In this document: piece after piece, positions 1,432 to 62,880 of the stretch | Position numbering within the stretch: the first letter of the stretch is position 1 | How the letters are laid out: the number at the start of each line of letters is the position of its first letter | Made by a program: the position numbers and the translations under genes | Notes under the pieces: model-generated | Database searches by the model: none | What the model saw: the letters and a program-made list of their open reading frames with translations, nothing else | What the model was told of the DNA's origin: nothing | Origin: Malacoraja senta | Taxonomy: Eukaryota | Assembly: GCA_038087875.1 (NCBI GenBank) | Contig: CM075992.1 | Location: 2,668,001-2,732,000 of the forward strand | Direction: 5' to 3' | Length of the DNA stretch: 64,000 nucleotides

Positions 1432-1869
1432 GCGGTGAGTTTCTTTACCTTTGATCTCCGCTGTTGTGGTTGATGCCCGTTCTGAATAAGCTCCTGTCTC
1501 ACGGGTCAAGTTACTGTGAGGTTGGTATGCTTGCCTCATTCACAGCAGATGTCTGGTTACTGGGCAGAGTGATTCTGAAATCAGTGTTTCTGAGCTAGAT
1601 TCGATCTGGGGCATAAAATAATACACAAAGGAACAGGCCCTTCAGCCCACAATCTCACACCGAACACAATACCACGGTAAACTAATCTGCCTGCATATCC
1701 CTCCATTCCCTGCGTATACATGTTCCTATCTAAAAGCATTGTAAATGCCACTATCGTATCCGCTTAACCCCACAACGCTGGCAGTGCCTTCCAGACACCC
1801 GCCACCCTCTGAACAAAATACTTGCCTTGCCCATCTCCTTTAAACTTTCCCCATCTCACCTCTTTCCCC

Positions 1870-3965
1870 AGCTCTCCCCGCCCATCCCTGGGACAATCCG
1901 ATCACCTCTCACTGTTTATACTGCCTGCATACAAACCTCTCATCCGCAAGATCAAACCTGCAATAAGGACGGTCAAAATATGGCCCGAGGACGCCACCCT
2001 ACAACTCCAGGACTGCTTTGATCGCACCGACTGGGACCTGTTTGCACAACAGGCTACCAGTGATACAGAGGTAGACTTGGAGGAGTACACATCCAAAGGA
2101 CAAAGGACATTTATTGTCACGTACACCAATTGGTGTAGTGAAATTTGACTTGCATGCAGCACACAAATAAAGATAACATTAAAGAATTTAACAATAAACA
2201 TAAAACATCTCCCCACAATGGTTCCCACTGTGGGGGAAGGCGGCAAAGTCCAGTCCCATCCCCAGTTCACCCATAGTCGGGGCCTATTGAGGCCTCTGCA
2301 GTCGCCGATACGGCAGCCCGATGCTTCAGGCCCTCTCGCCGGATGATGAAATTCTGGCGTCGGGTGAACACTCTCGGCGGCCCGGAGTGTCTGGAGCGGC
2401 CGCTACCTCCCGGGAGACCACGGCTCCCGAAGTCCACGAGCCGCGCTGGTCGGAGCTCCGACTCTGGCGACTTCGTCGTGAGATCCCAGGCTCCGCGGTG
2501 TTTAAAGCTCAGCGCCGCCCGCGGCTGGAAGCTCCACAGACCGCAGCTCCGCGATGTTGGAGCCGGCGGTCACAGCACTCCGGAGCTTACTGCACGGCAA
2601 CCCGGGTAAGGCATCGCCCGCTCCGCGATGGTGCTTCAGCGCTGTGCCGCTGCCGAAGCTGAAGTCCTGGCCAGTCCCGGCAGGAAAACGCCGCTCCAGT
2701 CTGCCCGTAGGCCGCGAGGAAGGGGCGAAGATACAGCTCGGAGAAAAGCCGCAACTCCGACCAGGTAGGTACTGAGAAAATAGTTTCCCCCTTTCCCCCA
2801 CCCCCCACATAAAAAGACTAAAAGACCTCCAAAACAAACACTTTTAACTAACTAAAAATAAAAAAGGGGTGAAAAGACTAACAGCTGCCATACTCGACGG
2901 CGCCCCATTATCCACTGTGCTCTCCTACATCAACTGCTGTGTGGAGACTGTCACAGTGGACAAGCAAATAAAGATGTTCCCAAACCGGAAACCCTGGATG
3001 AACAAGGAGGTTCAGGATATGCTAAGGGCACGCAACAATGCCTTTAAATCCAGGGATACTTCTGCTTACAGTGCGGCCAGGTCGAACCTGAACAGAGGCA
3101 TAAAAAAGGCCAAAGACATCCACATGCAAAGGGTAGAAGACTACTTCAACACCGCGGACACCAGAAGCATGTGGCAGGGTGTCAGGGACATCACCGACTA
3201 CAAGAGCAGCCCCGCCTGCCCCCACGGTGATATCACACTGGCCAACGAACTAAACGCCTTCTTTGCCCGGTTCGAAACTGGCAACACCACCAGGAGTGGA
3301 ATAACCCCGGCCATGGCGGAGGGACAGGCCTTAACACTGAGCACCCAGGAGGTACAGTGCGCTCTGCGTAGGATCAATCTACGCAAGGCTGCAGGCCCGG
3401 ATGGAGTCCAGGGAAGGGTACTAAAGGACTGTGCTGTACAGCTGGCGGAGGTATTCACGAGAATCTTCAATCTGTCTCTATCTCTGGCAACGGTCCCCAA
3501 GTGCCTGAAAACAGCCACCATAGTGCCGGTGCCGAAAAAGTCCAAAGTCACCAACCTGAACGACTACCGCCCGGTTGCCCTAACTCCAATCCCAATGAAG
3601 TGCTTCGAAAGGCTGGTCCTCTCCCATATCAAATCCAGCATCCCTGCCTCACTGGACTCCCATCAATTTTCATACAGGGCAAATAGATCAACTACTTCCC
3701 TCCGGCAGACGTTACAAGGCCTTCTACACCCGAACCTCCAGACTCAGAAACAGCTTTATTCCAAGAGCTATAGCGGCTCTGAACCGGCCCTGCTGAGTGC
3801 CCCCCCCACCCACCCCCCCTGGACAGTCTCCCTCGGATGGTCACGTCACTCAGCTTGCTTATTTATTTATTTTACTTTTCTTGTGCATCGGTGGAGCTGC
3901 ATACTAAATCTCGTTGCACTGACGTGCAATGACAATAAAAGATATTATTATTATTATTATTATTA
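1870..3965 (+). mobile_element. Rex1/Babar-clade LINE, 5'-truncated, internally deleted, interrupted at 2096-2909
   Basis: GQSDHLSLFILPAY, KAAGPDG, LNDYRPVALT, QFSYRANRST, then the C-terminal LLPSGRRY..RLRNSFIPRAI in another frame; GACAATAAA and (TAT)n tail. Confidence 0.88.
2096..2909 (-). mobile_element. GC-rich non-autonomous retroposon with a Rex1-type 3' tail
   Basis: Splits the host ORF between EEYTS and TVLSYIN; ATCCA duplicated at 2091-2095 and 2910-2914; minus-strand end ...GGTGTACGTGACAATAAATGTCCTTTGTCCTTT. Confidence 0.75.
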
Positions 3966-5710
3966 AAGCCACGCCCTCTGGTCTTTGATTTTTCCACCCT
4001 GGCGGGGGGGAAAGGGTTCTGACTGTCTGCCCTAACTATGCTTCTCACTTGAATATTAAAACACTTGACAGGCTCTGCAGTGAATGTTATACTTACCGAA
4101 GGCCTGGGACATCAGTGCAGGAAATGGATTGTGCTCTGCTTGATTCCCCGGTGTCAGCATGGTGTAGGTTTATAGGTTAATTGGCTTTGGCAAGTTGTAA
4201 AATTGTCCCTAGTGTGTGTAGATTAGTGTACGGAGTGATTGCTGGTCAGCGTGGACTTGGTGGGCCGAAGGGCCCGTTTCCGCGCTGTATCCCTAAAGTA
4301 AAGAGAGTCATAGAAACTCACAATACAAAGCCAGCTCCTTTGACCCAACCTGTCCATGCTAACCAAGACGCCTCATGCAAGTTAGTCCAATTTTACCTAG
4401 TGTTTGGCCCATATCCATTTAACCCTTTCCCATACATGTACCTGCCCAAATGTCTTTTAAATGTTGTTAAAGTACCTGCCTCAACTATTTCCTCTGGCAG
4501 CTCATTCCATATACCAACCATCGTCAGAGTGAAAAATTTGCCCCTCGGGTTCCTATTAAATCCTTTCTCCTCTCACCTTAAACCTGTACCCTCTGGTTCT
4601 TGATTCCCCAACCACGGGGGAAAAGATTCTGTACATTCACCCCTATGGGACTGAGCCTGTTGGTTCTGGCCTGGACAAAATGTGTGGGAAGAAACTGCAG
4701 GTGCTGATTTACACCGACAACGGAAACAAAAGGCTGGAGTAACTCAGCGGGTCAGGCGGCATCTCTGGAGAAAAGGAATAGGCGACATTTCTGGTTGAGA
4801 CCCTTCTTCAGGCCTGGCCTGGTACTGGCCTATATCATTATGGTGAGGTTATGGTGATGTTACGGGCACTTCTCTTGGCATTGGCCTCTGATCTGGAGTG
4901 ATTTATATTTGACCAGGAATGGAAATCCCAGCATAGGCTGTCGCAGTGCATCTCTGTGCTCACATCCCTAGGCTGGTGTGTATCACAGAAGCACTCTGCA
5001 ACGTAATCAGACATTGCGGTGAATGGATTCATACACAAGGCAGACATACCAACCTTAATTACATTGAATTATGACACCTTACTCCCACCCTCAGCATATA
5101 CTTTGCCAGTGCATGCTCCAGGGTATAGGATGAATGGGCCGTTCACTGGTAAGTGGAACCTGTTTGTGATGTCTTCTGTAAGACCGTTGTGACTAGCACA
5201 TTGAATACACGTCCGACATCTTGTAAGAAGGAATTTAATCTGCACAACCTGGAAACTTATAGAAGCTCACTTGACCACAGTCACATTTGCCAGCTTCAGC
5301 TTTTGGCCTCAAGGGGCACTGGCATTTATATTACATATACATCACACTGTTGGGGAGTAGATAGAGATATAGCAGGAAACAAGCCCTTTGGCCCACCAAG
5401 TCTATGTTGACCATCCCACTTTTGCACCCATCCCCTGCACACTAGGTGCAGTTTATAGAGGCCAATTAAGCTACAAACCTGCACATATTTGGGATGTGGG
5501 TGAAAATCGGGGCACTGAGAGGAAATCCATGCGATCACAAGGAGAATGTGCAAACTCCACACAAAGACACCCAAGGCCAGGATGGAACCCGGGGCTCTGG
5601 CGCTGTGAGGCAGCAACTTTCCCGACTGTGCTGCCCAGTCTGAAGCCGGGTGATTGAAGGGGAGATGGGTGGAAGCACACGGTGGTTTAAATAATTTTGC
5701 TTCATTTCAG

Positions 5711-33364: not shown

Positions 33365-33564
33365 NNNNNNNNNNNNNNNNNNNNNNNNNNNNNNNNNNNN
33401 NNNNNNNNNNNNNNNNNNNNNNNNNNNNNNNNNNNNNNNNNNNNNNNNNNNNNNNNNNNNNNNNNNNNNNNNNNNNNNNNNNNNNNNNNNNNNNNNNNNN
33501 NNNNNNNNNNNNNNNNNNNNNNNNNNNNNNNNNNNNNNNNNNNNNNNNNNNNNNNNNNNNNNNN
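33365..33564. other. Assembly gap (200 N)
   Basis: N run, ~110 bp after a long poly-C run. Confidence 1.
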
Positions 33565-36190
33565 AGGCAGTAGACAAGAGTCGCCACTTTCCCAGTTTTC
33601 TGCATTCTTTTTACAGAGTAAGTATGCTTGCAAGTAATAATGTTAAAAGTTTATAAGATAAATTAAATACAGTTTTCTGTGATACTCACTGATGGATTGG
33701 CAATCATCTTTACCGAGCAGGCAGCGTTAAATAAAAGATGAGAGGTGCTCAGTTGCAGTGGATGCCCAGGAACTGCCTCAATGTGACCCAATATTAGCCA
33801 GAGGGCTCCTGAGACACTGCTTCAATGTTGCTCTGGGTTCTACCTCTGAATTGCCAGTTCCTGGAGAGTGCTGCTTCGTGAAGAGCCAAATAACAAAGGT
33901 TTTACTAGATTTAAGTCGGAAAAGGGAAAATAGGGAACTTCAGATTATTTAACTTGACTTCCATGGGAGGGAAACGGCTTGAAGTTATTATTAAGGAAGT
34001 GGTCAGAGCACTGAGAGAATAATAGATTTGGAAAAAATCAACACAGCTTTGATAAATGAAAATCTATTACAGCTTTGAAAGTTGTAATGAGCAGTTGGAA
34101 TGTCATGCGGAAAAATACACGGTCATCCATTTTGGTCGAAAAACAATTGAAAAGCAGAGTTGACTTGTGGTCAAAGAATGAAATGTGTTGATATCCTTGA
34201 ATGCAATTGACACAGTCAATGTGCAGTTACAGCAGTCAAAGAGGAAATCAAATGATATGCTGACCTTTGCTGCAAGAGGATTTGAGTACAAGGGTAAAGA
34301 TGTCTTATGGTTGCGGCTGGGACACCACATGCAGAACTAGTCTCTTTACATGATGAAGTATGTATCCCCAATGGAGCATAAACAACAACATGCTCACAGC
34401 TCTAATCCTGGGATGGGTTGATTGACCTGAACAAAAGATAAAACAGACTGCAAGAAGATTGTTCCCGATGTTGTGGAAGTCCAGAACAAGAGGCCAGTTC
34501 ATTGGCTATATTTAAGAGGGAGTTAAATGTGGCCCTTGTGGCTAAAGGGATCAGGGGGTATGGAGAGAAAGCAGGTACAGGATACTGAGTTGGATGATCA
34601 GCCATGATCATATTGAATGGCGGTGCAGGCTCGAAGGGCTAAATGGCCTACTCCTGCACCTATTGTCAATGTCTATGTTTCTATGTTTCTATATTCTCTG
34701 AACGTTCAAAGAATGAGATCGATCTCACTAACCTATTAAGTACTTTCAGTTTGACAATGTAAATACAGGGCAAAATAATGTCCAGGCCAGGGATCGAAGT
34801 CTCAAAATAAGTGGCTAGCAATGGAGGACTGAATTAAGGAGAAATATCTTCATCCCGAGGATGAAGATATTTGTTATTCTCCACCACAAAGGGTTATGGA
34901 GGCTCAGCTGCCAGGCATATTTACAACAGGGATCACAAGCGTTTCAGATATTATTAATTGTGTCGTATTGGATTAGTGTAGGAAAGTGGCATTGCACCAA
35001 AAACTCCCCCGTGATTTTTGTGAAAGGCACAGCAGATGCAAGGGGCCTCTTTCATGCTGTCATGAAAGAGTTAGATAGAGCTCTAGGGGCTAGTGGAATC
35101 AAGGTATATGGGGAGAAGGCAGGCACGGGTTATTGATTGGGGACGATCAGCCATGATCACAATGAATGGCGGTGTTGGCTCGAAGAGCCGAATGGCCTCC
35201 TTCTGCACCTATTTTCTATGTTTCTATGATTCTCCCTCCCATCAACCCACACCATTGGTGGCCACAGCTTCCATGACTCAGTCCTTCCTTTAAGATCCTC
35301 TCCCTCAACACTTCTAGGATTCATACACAATTACACAGCACGAAGTAAAGACCAACTATCAAGCAGTCATTTGCACTAATCCCATTAATTTCTTTGCACA
35401 TTATCAGCACTGCCCTCAGATACGACCAGCCACCTACACTGAGGCCAATTAACTGACTGACAAGCACTTTTTTGCAATGTGGAAGGACATTTTGAGAAAA
35501 GCAAGCAATCACAGGAAAATTGTGCAAAACTCCACACAGACAGCAGAGGTCAGAATCAAAACCAGTTGCTGTGGATGTGAAGCATTTAAGACCCTTCTTA
35601 AAATTAAACATTTGTCACCCCTAATTTCTCCTTTGGTTTTCTCAAGAATATTCTGCACAATTTACATCATTAAAAATGCTACAAAAAGTTTGTTTTTGTT
35701 ACTTAGTCTATTAGCTCTACTTGACTGTTACATGGCAACACTGCTCTCCATTTCATTTTAAGATTTAAAAAAGCCTTAAATACCTTCAGGGTCTTCTTAT
35801 TACAATATTAGTTACTGGGCATTGCATCGGTCAACCGAGGAAACAAAACTGGTCAGCATCGCCTAATGCCCCTTTGAGCAACTAGGTCTGGAAACAATGC
35901 TCAGGAGACTGCAGACACTTCTCCTGTTCAAATTGTCAACTCCAAGTGCCTCTTTTCTTGCTTCTGCCTGCACCCTCTACCTCATGCGCGTATTCTACTG
36001 CTTGAAACCTTTTTATTGCGACAGGAGTCAAAACTCAGAATATAAGGGGTGGGGAGACCCACAAGACCTTTGAAATGGAAACATCAGCAACGTCATCAGC
36101 GTGTGCAGAATTGTCAGGGCCGTTTGCAGGCAACCTCTGTGGGTGAGATGACGAACACAGCCCTGTTTGGTTCTGGTCTTTGAAGTCTTT

Positions 36191-39100
36191 ACATACATAG
36201 ATACATAGAAAATAGGCGCAGGAGTAGGCCATTCGGCCCTTCGAGCCTGCACCGCCATTCAATATGATCATGGCTGATCATCCAACTCAGTATCCCGTAC
36301 CTGCCTTCTCTCCATACCCCCTGATCCCTTTAGCCACAAGGGCCACATCTAACTCCCTCTTAAATATAGCCAATGAACTGGCCTCAACTACCCTCTGTGG
36401 CAGAGTTCCAGAGATTCACCACTCTCTGTGTGAAAAAGTTTTTTCTCATCTCGGTCTTAAAGGATTTCCCCCTTATCCTTAAGCTGTGACCCCTTGTCCT
36501 GGACTTCCCCAACATCGGGAACAATCTTCCTGCATCTAGCCTGTCCAACCCCATAAGAATTTTGTACGTTTCTATAAGATCCCCTCTCAATCTCCAAAAT
36601 TCTAGCGAGTATAAGCCAAGTCTATCCAGTCTTTCTTGATATGAAAGTCCTGACATCCCAGGAATCAGTCTGGTGAACCTTCTCTACACTCCCTCTATGG
36701 CTATAATGTCCTTCCTCAGATTTGGAGACCAAAACTGTACGCAATACTCCAGGTGTGGTCTCACCAAGACCCTGTACAACTGCAGTAGAACCTCCCTGCT
36801 CCTATACTCAAATCCTTTTGCTATGAAAGCTAACATACCATTCGCTTTCTTCACTGCCTGCTGCACCTGCATGCCTACTTTCAATGACTGGTATACCATG
36901 ACACCCAGGTCTCGCTGCATCTCCCCTTTTCCTAATCGGCCACCATTTAGATAATAGTCTACTTTCCTGTTTTTGCCACCAAAGTGGATAATCTCACATT
37001 TATCCACATTATACTGCATCTGCCAAACATTTGCCCACTCACCCAGCCTATCCAAGTCACCTTGCCGTCTCCTAGCATCCTCCTCACAGCTAACACTGCC
37101 CCCCAGCTTAGTGTCATCCGCAAACTTGGAGATGTTGCCTTCAATTCCCTCATCCAGTTCATTAATATAAATTGTAAATAGCTGGGGTCCCAGCACTGAG
37201 CCTTGTGGTACCCCACTAGTCACTGCCTGCCATTGTGAAAAGGACCCGTTTACTCCTACTCTTTGCTTCCTGTTTGCCAGCCAGTTCTCTATCCACATCA
37301 ATACTGAACCCCCAATACCGTGTGCTTTAAGTTTGTATACTAATCTCTTATGTGGGACCTTGTCAAAAGACTTCTGAAAGTCCAGATACAACACATCCAC
37401 TGGTTCTTCCCTATCCACTCTACTAGTTACATCCTCGAAAAATTCTATAAGATTCGTCAGACATGATTTACCTTTCGTAAATCCATGCTGACTTTGTCCA
37501 ATGATTTCACCACTTTCCAAATGTGCTGCTATCCCATCTTTAATAACTGACTCTAGCAGTTTCCCCACTACCGATGTCAGACTAACTGGTCTGTAATTCC
37601 CCGTTTTCTCTTTCCTTCCCTTCTTAAAAAGTGGGGTTACGTTTGCTACCCTCCAATCCTCAGGAACTACTCCAGAATCTAAAGAGTTTTGAAAAATTAT
37701 CACTAATGCATCCACTATTTCTGGAGCGACTTCCTTAAGTACTCTGGGATGCAGCCTATCTGGCCCTGGTGATTTATCGGCCTTTAATCCATTCAATTTA
37801 CCCAACACCACTTCCCGACTAACCTGGATTTCACTCAGTTCCTCTATCTCCTTTGACCCGCGGTCCCCTGCTATTTCCGGCAGATTATTAATGTCTTCCT
37901 TAGTGAAGACGGAACCAAAGTAGTTATTCAATTGGTCCGCCATATCCTTGTTCCCCATGATCAATTCGCCTGTTTCTGACTGCAAGGGACCTACATTCGT
38001 TTTAACTAATCTCTTTCTCTTCACATATCTATAAAATCTTTTGCAGTCAGTTTTTATGTTCCCTGCCAGTTTTCTTTCATAATCTATTTTCCCTTTCCTA
38101 ATTAAGCCCTTTGTCCTCCTCTGCTGGTCTCTGAATTTCTCCCAGTCCTCTGGTACGCTGCTTTTTCTGGCTAATTTGTACGCATCATCTTTTGCTTTGA
38201 TACCATCCCTGATTTCCCTTGTTATCCACGGATGCACTACCTTCCCTGATTTATTCTGTTGCCAAACTGGAATGAACAATCTTTGTAGTTCATCCATGCA
38301 GTCTTTAAATGCCTTCCATTGCATATCCACCGTCAACCCTTTTAGAACTAATTGCCAGTCAATCTTGGCCAATTCACGTCTCATACCCTCAAAGTTACCT
38401 TTCTTTAAGTTCAGAACCGTTGTTTCTGAATTAACAATGTCACTCTCCATCCTAATGAAGAACTCAACCTTATTATGGTCACTCTTGCCCAAGGGGGCAC
38501 GCACAACAAGACTGCTAACTAACCCTTCCTCATTACTCAATACCCAGTCTAGAATAGCCTGCTCTCTCGTTGGTTCCTCTACATGTTGGTTTAGATAACT
38601 ATCCCGCATACATTCCAAGAAATCCTCTTCCTCAGCACCCCTGCCAATTTGATTCACCCAATCTATATGTAGATTGAAGTCACCCATTATAACTGTTTTG
38701 CCTTTGTTGCACATATTTCTAATTTCCTGTTTGATGCCATCCCCAACTTCACCACTACTGCTAGGTGGCCTGTACACAACACCCACCAGCGTTTTCTGCC
38801 CCTTAGTGCTTCGCAGCTCCACCCATACCGATTCCACATCCTCCAAGCTAATGTCCTTCCTTTCCACTGCGTTAATCTCCTCTCGAACCAGCAACGCTAC
38901 TCCACCACCTTTTCCTTTCTCGCTATCCCTCCTGAATATTGAATATCCCTGGATGTTCAGCTCCCAGCCTTGGTCACCCTGGAGCCATGTCTCCGTGATC
39001 CCGACTATATCATAATCATTAATAGCTATCTGCGCGTTCAACTCATCGACCTTATTACGAATGCTCCTTGCATTGAGACACAAAGCCTTCAGGCTTGTTT

Positions 39101-39955
39101 TTACAACGCTCTTACCCCTTATACAATCATGTTGAAAAGTGGCCCTTTTTGATTTTTGCCCTGGATTTGTCTGCCTGCCACTTTTACTTTTCACCTTGCT
39201 ACCTATTGCTTCTGCCCGCATTTTACACCCCTCTGTTTCTCTGCTCACCCATTTAAGAAACCCACCACCTCTTATTCTCTGTTTATTATTGTTTTCTTCT
39301 TTCCCCCCTACATGTTGGGTCTGAGTGCTTTCCTTCTCTGCCTCCTGCCTCACACACTGTCTAATAGCTTTCTCTATTTGAGTCCCTCCCCCCAACCATT
39401 CTAGTTTAAAGTCTCCCCAGTAGCCTTTGCAGATCTCCCCGCCAGGATATCGGTCCCCCTCAGGTTCAAGTGCAACCCATCCTTTTTGTACAGGTCGCAC
39501 CTTCCACAAAAGAGGTCTCAATGATCCAGAAATTTGAATCCCTGCCCTCTGCACCAGTCCTTCAGCCACGCATATATCCTCCACCTTGCTCCATTCCTAC
39601 TCTCACTGTCGCGTGGCACAGGCAGTAATCCCGAGATTGTTACCTTTGCTGTCCTACTCTTTAACTCCCCTCCTAACTCCCTAAATTCTCCTTTCAGGAC
39701 CTCTTCTCTTTTTTTACCTATGTCATTGGTACCTATATGTACCACGACCTCGGGCTCCTCTCCCTCCCCTTTCAGGATATCTTGGACACGTTGAGACACA
39801 TCACAGACCCTGGCACCAGGGAGGCAAACTACCATCCGGGTCTCCCGACTGTGTCCACAGAATCGCCTGTCTGACCCCCTAACTATAGAGTCCCCTATTA
39901 GTATCGCCCTCCTCTTCTTTTCATTACCCTTCTGAGCAACAGGACCGGTCTCTGT
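36191..39955 (-). mobile_element. Near-complete CR1-clade LINE: partial ORF1 (SGNH esterase) and ORF2 (APE endonuclease + RT), disabled by stops
   Basis: ORF1 IGDSIVR..CLPGA..HIGTND..DGLHLN; ORF2 CLNARS, GITETWL, MGDFN, SDH, GVPQGSVLGP, KFADDTK; premature stops at 39518-39520 and 36684-36686; octamer-repeat tail at ~36191-36210. Confidence 0.95.
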
Positions 39956-40649
39956 ACACTCATTAAACCTTTAATTAAACCACCCACAATGAACTGTGTC
40001 TGTTTAATCCTGCAAATACCCATGAGCTTCAGCAAACCATTTGCCATCGATGCAAGGAGATCTTAGAATGATCCAGTGCAAGGGAAAGATGAAGGATATG
40101 CTCTGTTTGTATATCATTTTTACACAGAGAGTGGTGAATCTGTGGAATTCTCTGCTACAGAAGGTGGTTGAGGCAGTTCATTGGCTATATTTAAGAGGGA
40201 GTTAGATATGGCCCTTGTGGCTAAAGGGATCAGGGGGTATGGAGAGAAGGCAGGGATGGGATACTGAGTTGGATGATCAGCCATGATCATATCAAATGGC
40301 GGTGCAGGTTCGAAGGGCCGAATGGCTTACTCCTGCACCTATTTTCTATGTATCTATGTTTCTATTTACATGTGTGCTTTTGTTTTAAGTACTACTCTGT
40401 ATTATTTTGCTTTGTGTGTTGCATGAAGACCAGTGATCATGTACATTAAAGTAGAAGCAAGGAACTGCACGTGATGGTTTACAAACAAAGGACAAATTCT
40501 TCAGTGTAAATCAGCATCGGCAGTTCTTTCCTCCACCTATCACTTGCTTGGTTTGCCGAACCCCACCTTCTCGCCCTTACTCCATCATTCTGAAGACGGG
40601 TTGGAGGCAGGAACTGCAGATGCTGGTTTACACAAAATGCTTGAGTAAT

Positions 40650-55500: not shown

Positions 55501-56008
55501 CGTACGAAAATGCTGTAGATATTGCACAGGTCAGGCACAGGAGTTAATGTTTCAGGTCGACGTGGTGGGGAGGCCTGCAGGGAGAAAGCCTAGATGCAGA
55601 ATACAAGGTCTGGTAACATCTGCGTAGGAAGGAACTGCAGATATTGCTTTAAACCGAAGACAGACACAAAAAACCTGGAGTAACTCCGCGGTTCAGGCAG
55701 CATCTCTGGAGAAAAGGAATTGGTGACGTTTTGGGTCAAGACCCTTCTTCAGACTGCCAGTCTTCAGTCTGAACAACTCCAGCTGGTTACTCCAGCTTTT
55801 TGTGTCTATCTTATAGTAACATCTGTGTTGAGAGAAAGACTAAAGTTAATGTTTCAGGTGGAGGTCCCTCCATCAGAACTGGCCAGTTCTGACAAACGGT
55901 AAAGGTGATTATCTTAAATTGTTGAATTCTACATTAAGTCCCAAGGACAATAATCACTGACATACAATGGTCCAGTATAAAAAATGGCTCCAATTCATGT
56001 GCATATCT

Positions 56009-56420
56009 GTTCGATGACGTTGAGCTTGGCGGTGGTAAGGCCTTCAACATTGAGCTGCAGTAGCGCTAAACCTCGTCAGTTGGTGGCATTTAACGGTGCC
56101 GCCTGGCCTGGGGAGGCAAACTTTTAGCGGTCTACAGACGTGGTAAAGACATTGGTTTTGCTTTGTGGGCTTATGAGCCTGTAAGCTACTCGTAGAGGAG
56201 GCCGCGTAGAGGCTAGGCCGCGTAGAAGCCTCGTGGACAGCACCTCCTGCGAGTGTGGGGACCCAACACAGACAGTGGAGCACATAGTCACCAGTTGCCC
56301 CAAACACCGGCCACCGAATGGTGAACGAGGTCTGATTGACCTGGACGATGACACGTTGGCCTGACTCGCCTCAACGGAGCTGCAGGTCTAAAAGACACAC
56401 GACAGAAGAAGAAGAAGAAG
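56009..56420 (+). mobile_element. Ingi/Vingi-like (I-group) LINE derivative with an inverted 5' segment
   Basis: 12-bp TSD ATGTGCATATCT at 55997-56008 and 56421-56432; (GAA)n tail; + strand CECG..QTVEHIVTSCP zinc knuckle; - strand LLQLNVEGL. Confidence 0.75.
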
Positions 56421-57943
56421 ATGTGCATATCTCACCAGCACACTGAGAGTGCCTCTTCATACCGATCAATTGGGGAATTATTTAACTTACTGAACACAAC
56501 TGTACACCAACCTGCCACCTGAATTGTGTGACAAATCCAAAATGTGCTGCAGAATCATCAGATCTGAAAGTCACAATGCAAGCTTTATGCAGACTTGCCT
56601 TATAACCTGAAGCACTTTGCTGAGGTTTCCTGTCAACTGGTAAATTGCATATTTTCAAATATTTAAGGGATTTCACCAACTGTTAGATTCTCAGTACTCT
56701 ACATATTTTATCCAGTTTATGATCGTTTTTGCCTGTCCGGGGTCCAAATCTGCTTCCCCTCAGTAAAATCAAGACAACAATTTCTTCTACTAATTCTCTT
56801 ACAAGAACATTAAAATTATCAAAATATCTTTTGTTACAACCTGCAGGATTTTTTTTAAATAGAGTGGCAACAAACCACCCAATTTTTGAGCACCTTCATC
56901 ATTCATCCTCTTCTCAAATTTGTTATTTGACAAACTGTCAGCAACACCTTCCACGATTGTATTATAGTGAAATGTCAGTAGCAGCAGTATTTAGACAGAT
57001 AAACTATGCCCAGCGTTTTTGTGGACAATATGGACTTGGATAATTTACCATTTGTTGCGGTATGTGTTGTGATTGATCTGTAACAGATTGCATAGATAGA
57101 GGCGCACCCAGTCCTGGAGCACATATCTTCATTTGTGTGTAAGAAGGAACAGCAGATGCTGGTTTACACTGAAATTAGACACAAAATGCTGGAGTATTTC
57201 AGCTGGACAAGCAGCATCTCTGGATAGAAGGAATGGGTGATGTTTTGGGTTGAGTCCTTTCTTCAGACTGAAGAAGGGTCACGGCCCGAAACGTCACCTA
57301 TTCCTACTATCCAGAAATGCTGCCTGTCCAGCTGAATTACTCCAGATGTTGGTTGACACAAAAGGCCACAAAAGTGCTGGAGTAACTCAGTGGGTCAGGC
57401 AGCATCTCGGGTGAACATGGATAGGTGACTTTTCAGATCGGGACCCTTATGAGTCTTGACCCCAAATGTCACCAAGTCAAGTTCTCCAGAGATGCTGCCT
57501 GACCCAGAGGCAGCATCTCTGGATGGAAGGAATGAGTGACGTTGTGGGTCGAGACCATTCTTCATTTTGTAGCCAGATTATCAAGGTCCATTAATAATAA
57601 TCTTAACATTGCCCCATTTGGGGTTCTGGAAGGTTGATTCAGCTTAATATAATTCATCTATCATTTGTGGCATGAAATTCAACTTTCCCACTACTCTGGG
57701 TAAATAAAGTTTCTCCTGAATTCTCCCTAGATTTATTCACACATTTCTTACATGTGCAGCTCCATGGTTTGGATACACTCAGTTTTCCCCTAAAACACCA
57801 CCTAATCCTTTCACAATTTTCAAGAGCTCCAGAAGTTCTTAGCCTTCTCCATTCTAGCGAAACGAAGAAGTGTCTCGACCTGAAACGTCACCCATTCCTT
57901 CTCTCCAGAGATGCTGCCTGTCCCGCTGAGTTACTCCAGCATT

Positions 57944-59233
57944 TGGATAGAGAAGTGGTTGGCTGACATGGATAGAGAAGTGGTTGGCAGACTGACATGG
58001 ATACAGAAGTGGTTGGCAGACAGGAAACAAAGAGTAGGGATTAACGGGTCCCTTTCAGAATGGCAGGCAACGACTAGTGGGGTACCGCAAGGCTCGGTGC
58101 TGGGACCGCAGCTATTTACAATATACATCAATGATTTGGATGAAGGGATTCAATGTAATATTAGCAAATTTGCAGATGACACAAAGCTGGGTGGCAGTGT
58201 GAACTGTGAGGAGGATGCTATGAGAATGCAGGGTGACTTGGACAGGTTGGGGGAGTGGGCAGATGAAGTTTAATGCGGATAAATGTGAGGTTATCCACTT
58301 TGGTAGCAAAAACAGGAAGGCAGATTACTATCTAAATGGTGTCAAGTTGGGAAAAGGGGAAGTACAACGGTATCTGGGGGTCCTTGTACATCAGTCTATG
58401 AAAGTAAGCATGCAGGTACAGCAGGCAGTGAAGAAAACGAATGGCATGTTCGCCTTTATAACAAGAGGAATCGAATATAGGAGCAAAGAGGTCTTTCTGC
58501 AGTTGTACAGAGCCCTAGTGAGACCACACCTGGAGTATTGTGTGCAGTTTTGGTCCCCTAATTTGAGGAAGGACATTCCTGCTATTGAGGGAGTGCAGCC
58601 TAGGTTTACAAGGTTAATTCCCGGGATGGCGGGACTGTCATATGCTGAGATAATGGAGCGGCTGGGCTTGTACACTCTGGAGTTTAGAAGGATAAGAGGG
58701 AATCTCATTGAAACATATAAGATTGTTAAGGGCTTGGACACACTAGAGGCCGGAAACATGTTCCCGATGTTGGTGGAGTCCAGAACCAGGGGCCACAGTT
58801 TAAGAATAAGGAGTAAGCCATTTAGAATGGAGACGAGGAAACCCTTTTTCTCACAGAATAGAATAGAAACTTTATTTGCCACACGACCAGGGTTGGTGGT
58901 AATTGGGTTCGGTACATGATGGTACACTGCTTTAGCACATTAACACTAATAACAACACAGATCATAATAATAAAGCACATCACAAATCACAAATCTCACC
59001 AACAATACATAGTGCAAAAGAGTGGTGAGTCTGTGGAATTCTCTGCCTCAAGAGGGCGGTGGAGGCAGGTTCTCTGGATGCTTTCAAGAGAGAGCTAGAT
59101 AGGGCTCTTAAAAATACCAGAGTCAGGGGATATGGGGAGAAGGCCGGAACGGGGTACTGATTGGGGATGATCAGCCATGATCACATTGAATGGCGGTGCT
59201 GGCTCGAAAGGCCAAATGGCCTACTCCTGCACC
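57944..59233 (+). mobile_element. CR1 LINE 3' portion (RT), with a small insertion at ~58857-59018
   Basis: GVPQGSVLGP, KFADDTK, RPHLEYCVQFW; (CTATTGT)n tail; inserted into a Penelope repeat that resumes at ~59234. Confidence 0.9.
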
Positions 59234-61626: not shown

Positions 61627-62880
61627 AACATAGAAACATAGAAACATAGAAATTAGGTGCAGGAGTAGGCCATTCGGCCCTTCGAGCCTGCACCGCCATT
61701 CAATATGATCATGGCTGATCATCCAACTCAGTATCCCGTACCTGCCTTCTCTCCATACCCTCTGATCCCTTTAGCCACAAGGGCCACATCTAGCTCCCTC
61801 TTAAATATAGCCAATGAACTGGCCTCGACTACCCTCTGTGGCAGAGAGTTCCAGAGATTCACCACTTTCTGTGAAAAAAGTTCTTCTCATCTCGGTTTTA
61901 AGGATTTCCCCCTTATCCTTAAGCTGTGACCCCTTGTCCTGGACTTCCCCAACATCGGGAGCAATCTTCCTGCATCTAGCCTGTCCAACCCCTTAAGAAT
62001 TTTGTAAGTTTCTATAAGATCCCCTCTCAATCTCCTAAATTCTAGAGAGTATAAACCAAGTCTATCCAGTCTTTCTTCATAAGACAGTCCTGACATCCCA
62101 GGAATCAGTCTGGTGAACCTTCTCTGCACTCCCTCTATGGCAATAATGTCCTTCCTCAGATTTGGAGACCAAAACTGTACGCAATACTCCAGGTGTGGTC
62201 TCACCAAGACCCTGTACAACTGCAGTAGAACCTCCCTGCTCCTATACTCAAATCCTTTTGCTATGAAAGCTAACATACCATTCGCTTTCTTCACTGCCTG
62301 CTGCACCTGCATGCCTACTTTCAATGACTGGTGTATCATGACACCCAGGTCTCGCTGCATGTCCCCTTTTCCTAGTCGGCCACCATTTAGAAAATAGTCT
62401 GCTTTCCTGTTTTTGCCACCAAAATGGATAACCTCACATTTATCCACATTATACTGCATCTGCCAAACATTTGCCCACTCACCCAGCCTATCCAAGTCAC
62501 CTTGCAGTCTCCTAGCATCCTCCTCACAGCTAACACTGCCCCCCAGCTTAGTGTCATCCGCAAACTTGGAGATATTGCCTTCAATTCCCTCATCCAGGTC
62601 ATTAATATATATTGTAAATAGCTGGGGTCCCAGCACTGAGCCTTGTGGTACCCCACTAGTCACTGCCTGCCATTGTGAAAAGGACCCGTTTACTCCTACT
62701 CTTTGCCAGCCAGTTCTCTATCCACATCAATACTGAACCCCCAATGCCATGTGCTTTAAGTTTGTATACTAATCTCTTATGTGGGACCTTGTCAAAAGCT
62801 TTCTGGAAGTCCAGATACACCACATCCACTGGTTCTCCCCTATCCACGCTACTAGTTACATCCTCGAAAAATTCTATAAG
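61627..62880 (-). mobile_element. CR1 LINE 3' portion, same young family as 36191-39955
   Basis: ORFs 61887-62663 and 62656-62892 nearly identical to the large copy; (CATAGAAA)n tail. Confidence 0.92.

Follow-up and report, generated by a model that had tools for sequence, protein, structure and literature searches.

A head-inverted 412-bp insertion carrying the two ends of an apparently Vingi-like LINE in Malacoraja senta

The window, by which we mean the whole 64-kb stretch of DNA that was analysed, contains a 412-bp element in which the two ends of what appears to be a Vingi-like LINE stand in opposite orientation. That this element is one real, lineage-specific insertion is confirmed by its empty site in two other organisms. 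As to how its head came to be inverted, we favour, with a probability of roughly 55%, twin priming on an ordinary full-length RNA of the family (one or two molecules). The element consists of the following parts:

55997..56008 (+): left target-site duplication (TSD), 12 bp, based on the exact repeat and the empty site; the family sequence beyond the inverted piece agrees with its last 4 bases, 56005-56008
56009..56152 (-): first part of the single ORF, reaching the first APE strand; ATG at 56152-56150; ends at element nt ~221
56145..56214 (-): what remains (nt 16-85) of a predicted HDV-like ribozyme, based on loose ends, fold and shuffle test
56215..56227 (+): junction insert, a 13-15-nt copy of 56199-56213 (14/15 alike) in which 56215-56227 copies 56199-56211
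56228..56391 (+): 3' end of the ORF with the C-terminal knuckle; premature TGA at 56362-56364, stop TAA at 56389-56391
56392..56420 (+): 13-nt 3' UTR and (GAA)5G tail
56421..56432 (+): right TSD, 12 bp, based on the exact repeat and the empty site

The insert, 56009-56420, lies between exact 12-bp copies of ATGTGCATATCT at 55997-56008 and 56421-56432. We placed on 55780-56640 the contigs of four public runs (X1, X2, X4 and X15, from four organisms, out of 23 runs listed), and the empty site was present in two of the four, X2 and X4, with one contig each from two organisms related to the host. In both, the joint leads from 55996 directly to 56421 and omits 424 bases; 12 letters can be assigned to either side of it. 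The flanks of these contigs are about 95-98% alike to the window. Since the joint carries this 12-letter ambiguity, the TSD is not a product of chance, and an accidental repeat was rejected as its origin; the preliminary description, made from the letters of the window, had proposed the same 412-bp insert between 12-bp TSDs. With this, we give practically no credence to the view that two unrelated fragments came to adjoin by chance between accidental repeats: the left half does diverge more from other family copies than the right half, but in the empty site both halves and one TSD are missing together as a unit, and the halves correspond to the two ends of the same proteins (see below). A contig of X1 covers 28 bases of the tail and continues across the TSD into the flank with zero substitutions, and this run shows 0 substitutions across 56393-56640; this suggests a filled site in a very close genome, the 28 letters falling short of the bridging threshold of 31 letters. 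Within the 64-kb window there is no second copy of the 412-bp insert, and the preliminary description likewise saw no other such element there.

Compared with the majority of the other family copies, the window copy has 7 base differences and 1 indel in ~400 positions, divided into 6 substitutions and the indel in the 206 nt of the left half and 1 substitution in the 193 nt of the right half. The differences specific to this copy include the two stops and the one-base frameshift near 56120 that break the left-half ORF, as well as the premature TGA at 56362-56364 in the right half, which is a Trp codon in other family copies. The window copy, one member of a large family, is young and broken. 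It can be regarded as dead, in that it would be immobile and its predicted ribozyme inactive. It has no evident function, being broken and with no host exon found nearby: a Pfam scan of 108 of the 128 non-repeat frames from 33.5 kb on retrieved no host exon and only 3 weak matches below the cut-off, the other 20 frames lying in a CR1-like element or in the element itself.

The coding content largely followed what was first described. The left half encodes, on the minus strand, GLALLQLNVEGLTTAKLNVIE, and both peptides and the GAA tail were present as reported, the tail reading (GAA)5G. The knuckle at 56248-56298, which is conserved in the relatives, reads CxC-x8-H-x4-C and not CxC-x7-H-x4-C as had been given. 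The two-part layout also held, with corrected limits; we place an inverted 5' piece at 56009-56214 and a 3' piece at 56228-56420, with the junction insert between them.

A search with the right-half peptide retrieved 5 proteins at 71-81% identity, and a further search with the closest of them retrieved 202 longer proteins and, in a larger library, 5214 representatives. Among 283 relatives, 25 matched both peptides of the element, so that the two halves do not map to unrelated families, and in 20 of these 25 the two matches were 917-924 aa apart. The matched peptides are the two ends of ~1000-aa single-ORF proteins, with LLQLNVEGL at the start of the APE domain; the earlier reading of this motif as the start of an endonuclease ORF is thus borne out in long relatives whose C-termini match the right half. 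Since the two halves match opposite ends of the same ~1000-aa proteins, the sequence comparison supports their derivation from one kind of LINE.

Pfam APE and RVT_1 domains were found in 5 of 6 scanned relatives, the sixth being N-terminally incomplete, and an RNase H family matched none of the 6 at E values up to 0.1. The preliminary description had also proposed looking for a 2A-like peptide as in Ingi/L1Tc; we rejected its presence, as the motif D[VI]ExNPGP occurred in none of 37 relatives of at least 880 aa and was absent from the N-terminus in the window. In the accessible text of PMC13708176 Vingi is described as having a single ORF with APE and RT and without RNase H, unlike Ingi, and in that of PMC3708506 the 2A-like peptide is described as present in Ingi/L1Tc and absent in Vingi. 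By their architecture, these proteins look Vingi-like. The relatives resemble known Vingi LINEs (Vingi-1_EE, Vingi-1_Acar) in having a ~1000-aa ORF with APE, RT and knuckle and neither RNase H nor 2A, and the present case differs from these in that the closest named proteins are unclassified teleost proteins.

Several searches were negative. A PDB search for an RT reference returned R2, L1 and group II RTs only, with no named Vingi or Ingi; the two short peptides of the insert matched no Pfam family; an N-terminal protein search for the family retrieved 0 of 24 candidates; and viral contigs gave no match to the element. No full-length parent emerged, and 81% was the highest identity among the protein matches. 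A metagenome scan retrieved only distant relatives (80 loci, 39-50% identity). One of them, locus L038 (~1700-4730), is a near-full-length, distant Vingi-like element in a metagenome contig which also ends in GAA repeats.

The closest named proteins all come from teleosts and are unclassified: Syngnathus acus (81% over 53 aa), a cluster with Synaphobranchus kaupii (81%), a cluster with Larimichthys crocea (72-75%) and Epinephelus coioides (71%). In a 60-column tree the piece from the window falls among teleost-labelled and unnamed proteins (94/92, unstarred). With 53 residues compared, this pattern is no more than suggestive of horizontal transfer between teleosts and this lineage, and the tree is too weak to support a claim of transfer.

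The arrangement of the pieces points to the manner in which the element was formed. The inverted piece abuts the left TSD with its 3'-most end and has its 5'-most end at the internal junction, facing the 3' piece; the accessible text of PMC2912911 describes this same layout for twin priming. Eight X1 contigs match into the TSD as far as 56005 and then continue in frame as EQ-I-AIKNK, where the relative P0009 has ERIAIKNH (this loose end is listed for X1 only, among the 24 of 396 loose ends listed, and its consensus is noisy after ~15 nt). The end of the TSD and the family sequence thus overlap by 4 nt (56005-56008), with a chance probability of about 1 in 256, and such microhomology is expected where the top strand primes internally. 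TSDs or overhangs of 10-20 bp are described for inverted L1 inserts in the available part of PMC4245944, and the 12-bp TSD of the element fits this range. Layout, TSD and overlap all fit the earlier suggestion that the head was inverted by twin priming.

The internal junction carries further traces. Here, 56215-56229 repeats 56199-56213 at 14 of 15 positions, and the family has an 8-nt repeat at 56191-56198 and 56205-56212. The junction insert may end in a 3-nt overlap with the 3' piece, GGC, if one later G>A change is assumed; the duplication precedes it.

In twin priming on a full-length RNA, the endonuclease would nick both strands 12 bp apart. The bottom strand would prime at the (GAA)n tail and stop after ~193 nt, while the end of the top strand would anneal over 4 nt to the RNA at nt ~222, to be extended toward the RNA 5' end. 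The second cDNA would stall inside the core of the predicted ribozyme, slip from the second to the first of the two 8-nt repeats and recopy ~15 nt, a slip that we infer as the source of the junction duplication. The two cDNAs would then join through ~3 nt of microhomology, with the loss of ~2.75 kb. The outcome would be identical whether a single RNA of the family or two had served as template; extension of opposite ends on different RNAs is described in the accessible text of PMC11702581.

Templated inserts and junction microhomology are also seen in end-joining repair. The 13-15-nt templated insert and the internal microhomology would accordingly resemble the outcome of another course of events, in which a full-length insertion was later rearranged by an internal deletion and a head inversion during DNA repair. 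Such a rearrangement would need one breakpoint to hit the edge of the TSD exactly without damaging the TSD, and a 4-nt overlap between the TSD and an internal stretch of the family, as seen here, is a prediction of priming; we therefore hold it to be very improbable.

In its layout, its 12-bp TSD, a 5'-junction microhomology of at least 2 nt and a short overlap or insert at the inversion junction, the element resembles 5'-inverted human L1 copies, as far as these are covered by the accessible parts of the sources. It differs from them in clade and host and in that the inverted piece is the extreme 5' end of the element. It also differs in the size of its gap: the stretch missing in comparison with full-length relatives amounts to 917-924 codons (~2.75 kb) if the template was full-length, whereas in human L1 twin priming the median gap is 14.5 bp (bioRxiv 2024.08.27.596794, part of the text) and gaps are often 1-10 bp (PMC11702581, likewise). 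A short gap is typical of L1 but not obligatory.

This gap, far beyond the L1 range, is the main argument for a different template. On this account, the RNA used in twin priming would have been a bipartite Vingi transcript of ~450-600 nt, shortened by an internal deletion; the join within this transcript would have lain in the gap and been lost at the inversion, and the presence of the two extreme ends would be explained without an atypical 2.75-kb gap. Bipartite elements are reported for the Vingi, Ingi, RTE and R2 clades (PMC5786205, available part), and those that derive from LINEs such as RIME, NARTc and the Vingi-1_EE derivatives likewise consist of LINE 5' and 3' ends only, with ~400 bp in total; the ends in the window differ from these in their opposite orientation, in the loss of the first 15 nt and in that no second copy of the join was seen. 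A distant relative, P0172 (266 aa), joins the APE start in frame to the C-terminal ~190 aa, with its break 7 aa after the same APE-start motif; this protein may represent a bipartite Vingi-like element or else an artefact of gene calling. (Two other relatives, P0230 and P0086, are also without internal parts.) Moreover, X1 is relatively richer in depth at the 5' end than X2 or X4.

The contigs of the four runs argue against such a mini-element template, which the preliminary description had favoured. None of the 15 joints listed across these runs is a strand change or a link from the APE start to the knuckle, X1 included, though joints of single-copy depth were otherwise listed. Loose ends before 56228 (18, 13, 9 and 6 contigs in the four runs, with an agreement of 0.71-0.79) continue as RYGVAMKRW, that is, as ordinary ORF, and the listed loose ends on both sides of the missing stretch behave in this way; these are 24 of 396 loose ends, the family contigs are mostly short, and a join lying further than ~30 nt away from the breakpoints would escape. 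Neither an X15 contig that reaches 393 letters upstream nor an X1 contig that continues for 459 letters past 56005 has a listed return to the other half. The join of a short template would, in addition, need to sit exactly in the lost gap, and family 5' ends are far rarer than 3' ends: by hand-summed depth, which is not copy number, the 3' half exceeds the 5' half ~13-, ~55- and ~35-fold in X1, X2 and X4, respectively, as fits a family that is mostly 5'-truncated. (X15, possibly an RNA run, covers the 3' half only and says nothing on transcription.) We regard the short template as possible but lean against it, and retain twin priming on full-length RNA as the preferred reading.

A second inversion of the same general kind appeared in the two organisms with the empty site. 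In both X2 and X4, another type of contig, at about single-copy depth, joins the complete family 5' end head-to-head to 56324, with shorter sides of 30 and 36 letters; the join involves the last ~95 nt of the element. It is probably one older inversion shared by these two organisms, a nested insertion being possible. Among the distant relatives in metagenomes, no head-to-head piece was found at any of the 43 loci that could be assessed (at least 300 nt upstream), 37 of the 80 loci having been excluded because contig ends truncated them; some of the loci are duplicates. The inversion is thus not general in the clade.

A broader and more speculative proposal would link these inversions to the RNA's 5' end. 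The protein of this family may hold a 5' ribozyme and the 3' tail together at the target, such that the second end is primed just behind the ribozyme regardless of how far the first cDNA has been extended; end-to-end twin priming would then repeatedly give two-ended, head-inverted copies from full-length RNA, with the reverse transcriptase stalling in the ribozyme core, in a family that possibly crossed between teleosts and this lineage. Taken as a whole we consider this proposal rather unlikely.

The ribozyme is itself a prediction. Behind 56214, loose ends (5, 10 and 10 contigs in X1, X2 and X4, respectively) add 15 shared bases and then diverge, and this divergence marks the 5' end of the family. 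From the 15 added bases come the 5' strands of P1 (7 bp, position 1 being a G-U) and of P2 (also 7 bp); for each strand, the remnant contains just one complete partner, located where it is expected. An HDV-like ribozyme has a P1 of 7 bp, whose pair at the cleavage site is G-U, a P2, a 3-bp P3, a U/C-rich L3, a P4 and a C in J4/2. The corresponding parts retained in the window, all on the minus strand, are:

56213-56211/56203-56201 (-): P3, GCC/GGC in the fold
56210-56204 (-): L3, loop UCUACGC
56200-56194 (-): 3' strand of P1
56186-56160 (-): P4 in the fold
56155 (-): C of J4/2, nt 75
56151-56145 (-): 3' strand of P2, overlapping the AUG

Among 2,000,000 shuffles, 67 passed the test for P3 and P1 and 466 that for P2 and J4/2, and none passed both, with a descriptor composed after the sequence was seen. 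The family RNA is accordingly predicted by this modelling to start with an HDV-like ribozyme, such as the earlier text had suggested seeking at the 5' end of the parent. Putative Mg-dependent self-cleavage before G1 has indirect support, in that the family 5' ends stop at the predicted G1 in the same 5, 10 and 10 contigs. P1.1 is limited to one U-A pair (by inspection), and Rfam gave 0 matches in the window at the gathering score and 3 matches at chance level near the element. The remnant alone folds no better than shuffles (z -0.59), as is expected where pseudoknots are left out. Having lost the first 15 nt, and with them the 5' strand of P1 and most of that of P2, the window copy would be unable to fold the ribozyme.

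This prediction replaces the leader of short repeats in two or three copies that had been read at this place. Two of the 8-mers are parts of the predicted ribozyme and the third belongs to the junction duplication, and we rejected a tandem-repeat leader.

A ribozyme is to be expected in Vingi, since the sister clade Ingi has one (PMC3185411 and PMC4035085, accessible parts). In the literature found, none is reported for Vingi; the available part of the text that names both ties ribozymes to R2 platforms only, and the available part of PMC5786205 lists six clades with ribozymes, Vingi not among them. The predicted fold shares with the L1Tc/Ingi ribozymes (L1TcRz, Pr77) a nested double pseudoknot at the 5' end, and with L1TcRz in particular a 77-nt 5' UTR and a P1.1 that would consist of a single pair (described for L1Tc in the accessible text of PMC3185411). 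It differs from them in having no Rfam match, in that its one P1.1 pair would be U-A, and in that the AUG spans J4/2 and P2. This AUG is built from the last base of J4/2 and the first two bases of P2, and the 5' UTR of the family is 77 nt long. Beside the first G of the family, the consensus rows of X1, X2 and X4 as well as the second inversion all carry A (cDNA strand), which the reverse transcriptase may have added without a template.

Inversion of the 5' end is described as nearly exclusive to mammalian L1 in the accessible text of PMC4245944 and PMC2912911, and the former gives it in human cells for L1 only, plus one Nimb-2_DR insert. We found no report of 5' inversion in Vingi in the literature searched, which lay mostly outside subscription papers, patents and supplements; the available parts of PMC5389967 and PMC6007223 held nothing informative on inversion. 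The present case is one of a known mechanism, twin priming, in a clade for which we found no inversion report, with a large gap and a predicted 5' ribozyme as its particular features. An inversion in a Vingi-like element, together with the second one in related species, suggests that the cause lies in the 10-20-bp stagger and not in L1 or mammalian host factors. Vingi-1 is under development for gene insertion according to the available text of PMC13708176, and head-inverted by-products and a predicted ribozyme overlapping the start codon matter in such tools for the quality of junctions and the design of UTRs.

The surroundings of the element contain a gene and several other repeats. The RAVER1 gene occupies 18590 to ~33000 (+), some 25-35 kb upstream of the element, and its frame at 23511-23939 matches human Raver-1 (E 2e-67). 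This gene marks the host as a vertebrate, and the types of repeat suggest a cartilaginous fish. A 970-aa open endonuclease-RT frame lies on the minus strand at 36684-39596, with an upstream frame at 39518-39970 and further pieces at 57884-58919 and 61887-62717; it resembles a young CR1-like LINE. An RT fragment of another LINE type is found at 2848-3966 (+; RVT_1, E 0.0027). The assembly gaps in the window, for instance near 1230-1430 and 33370-33570, total 400 N, and none is near the element. Repeats within the window cover about 24% of it, and a repeat of 90-160 bp occurs at 55618-55776 and in some 30 other places, in both orientations and often as inverted pairs. The end of this repeat is extremely deep in all four runs.
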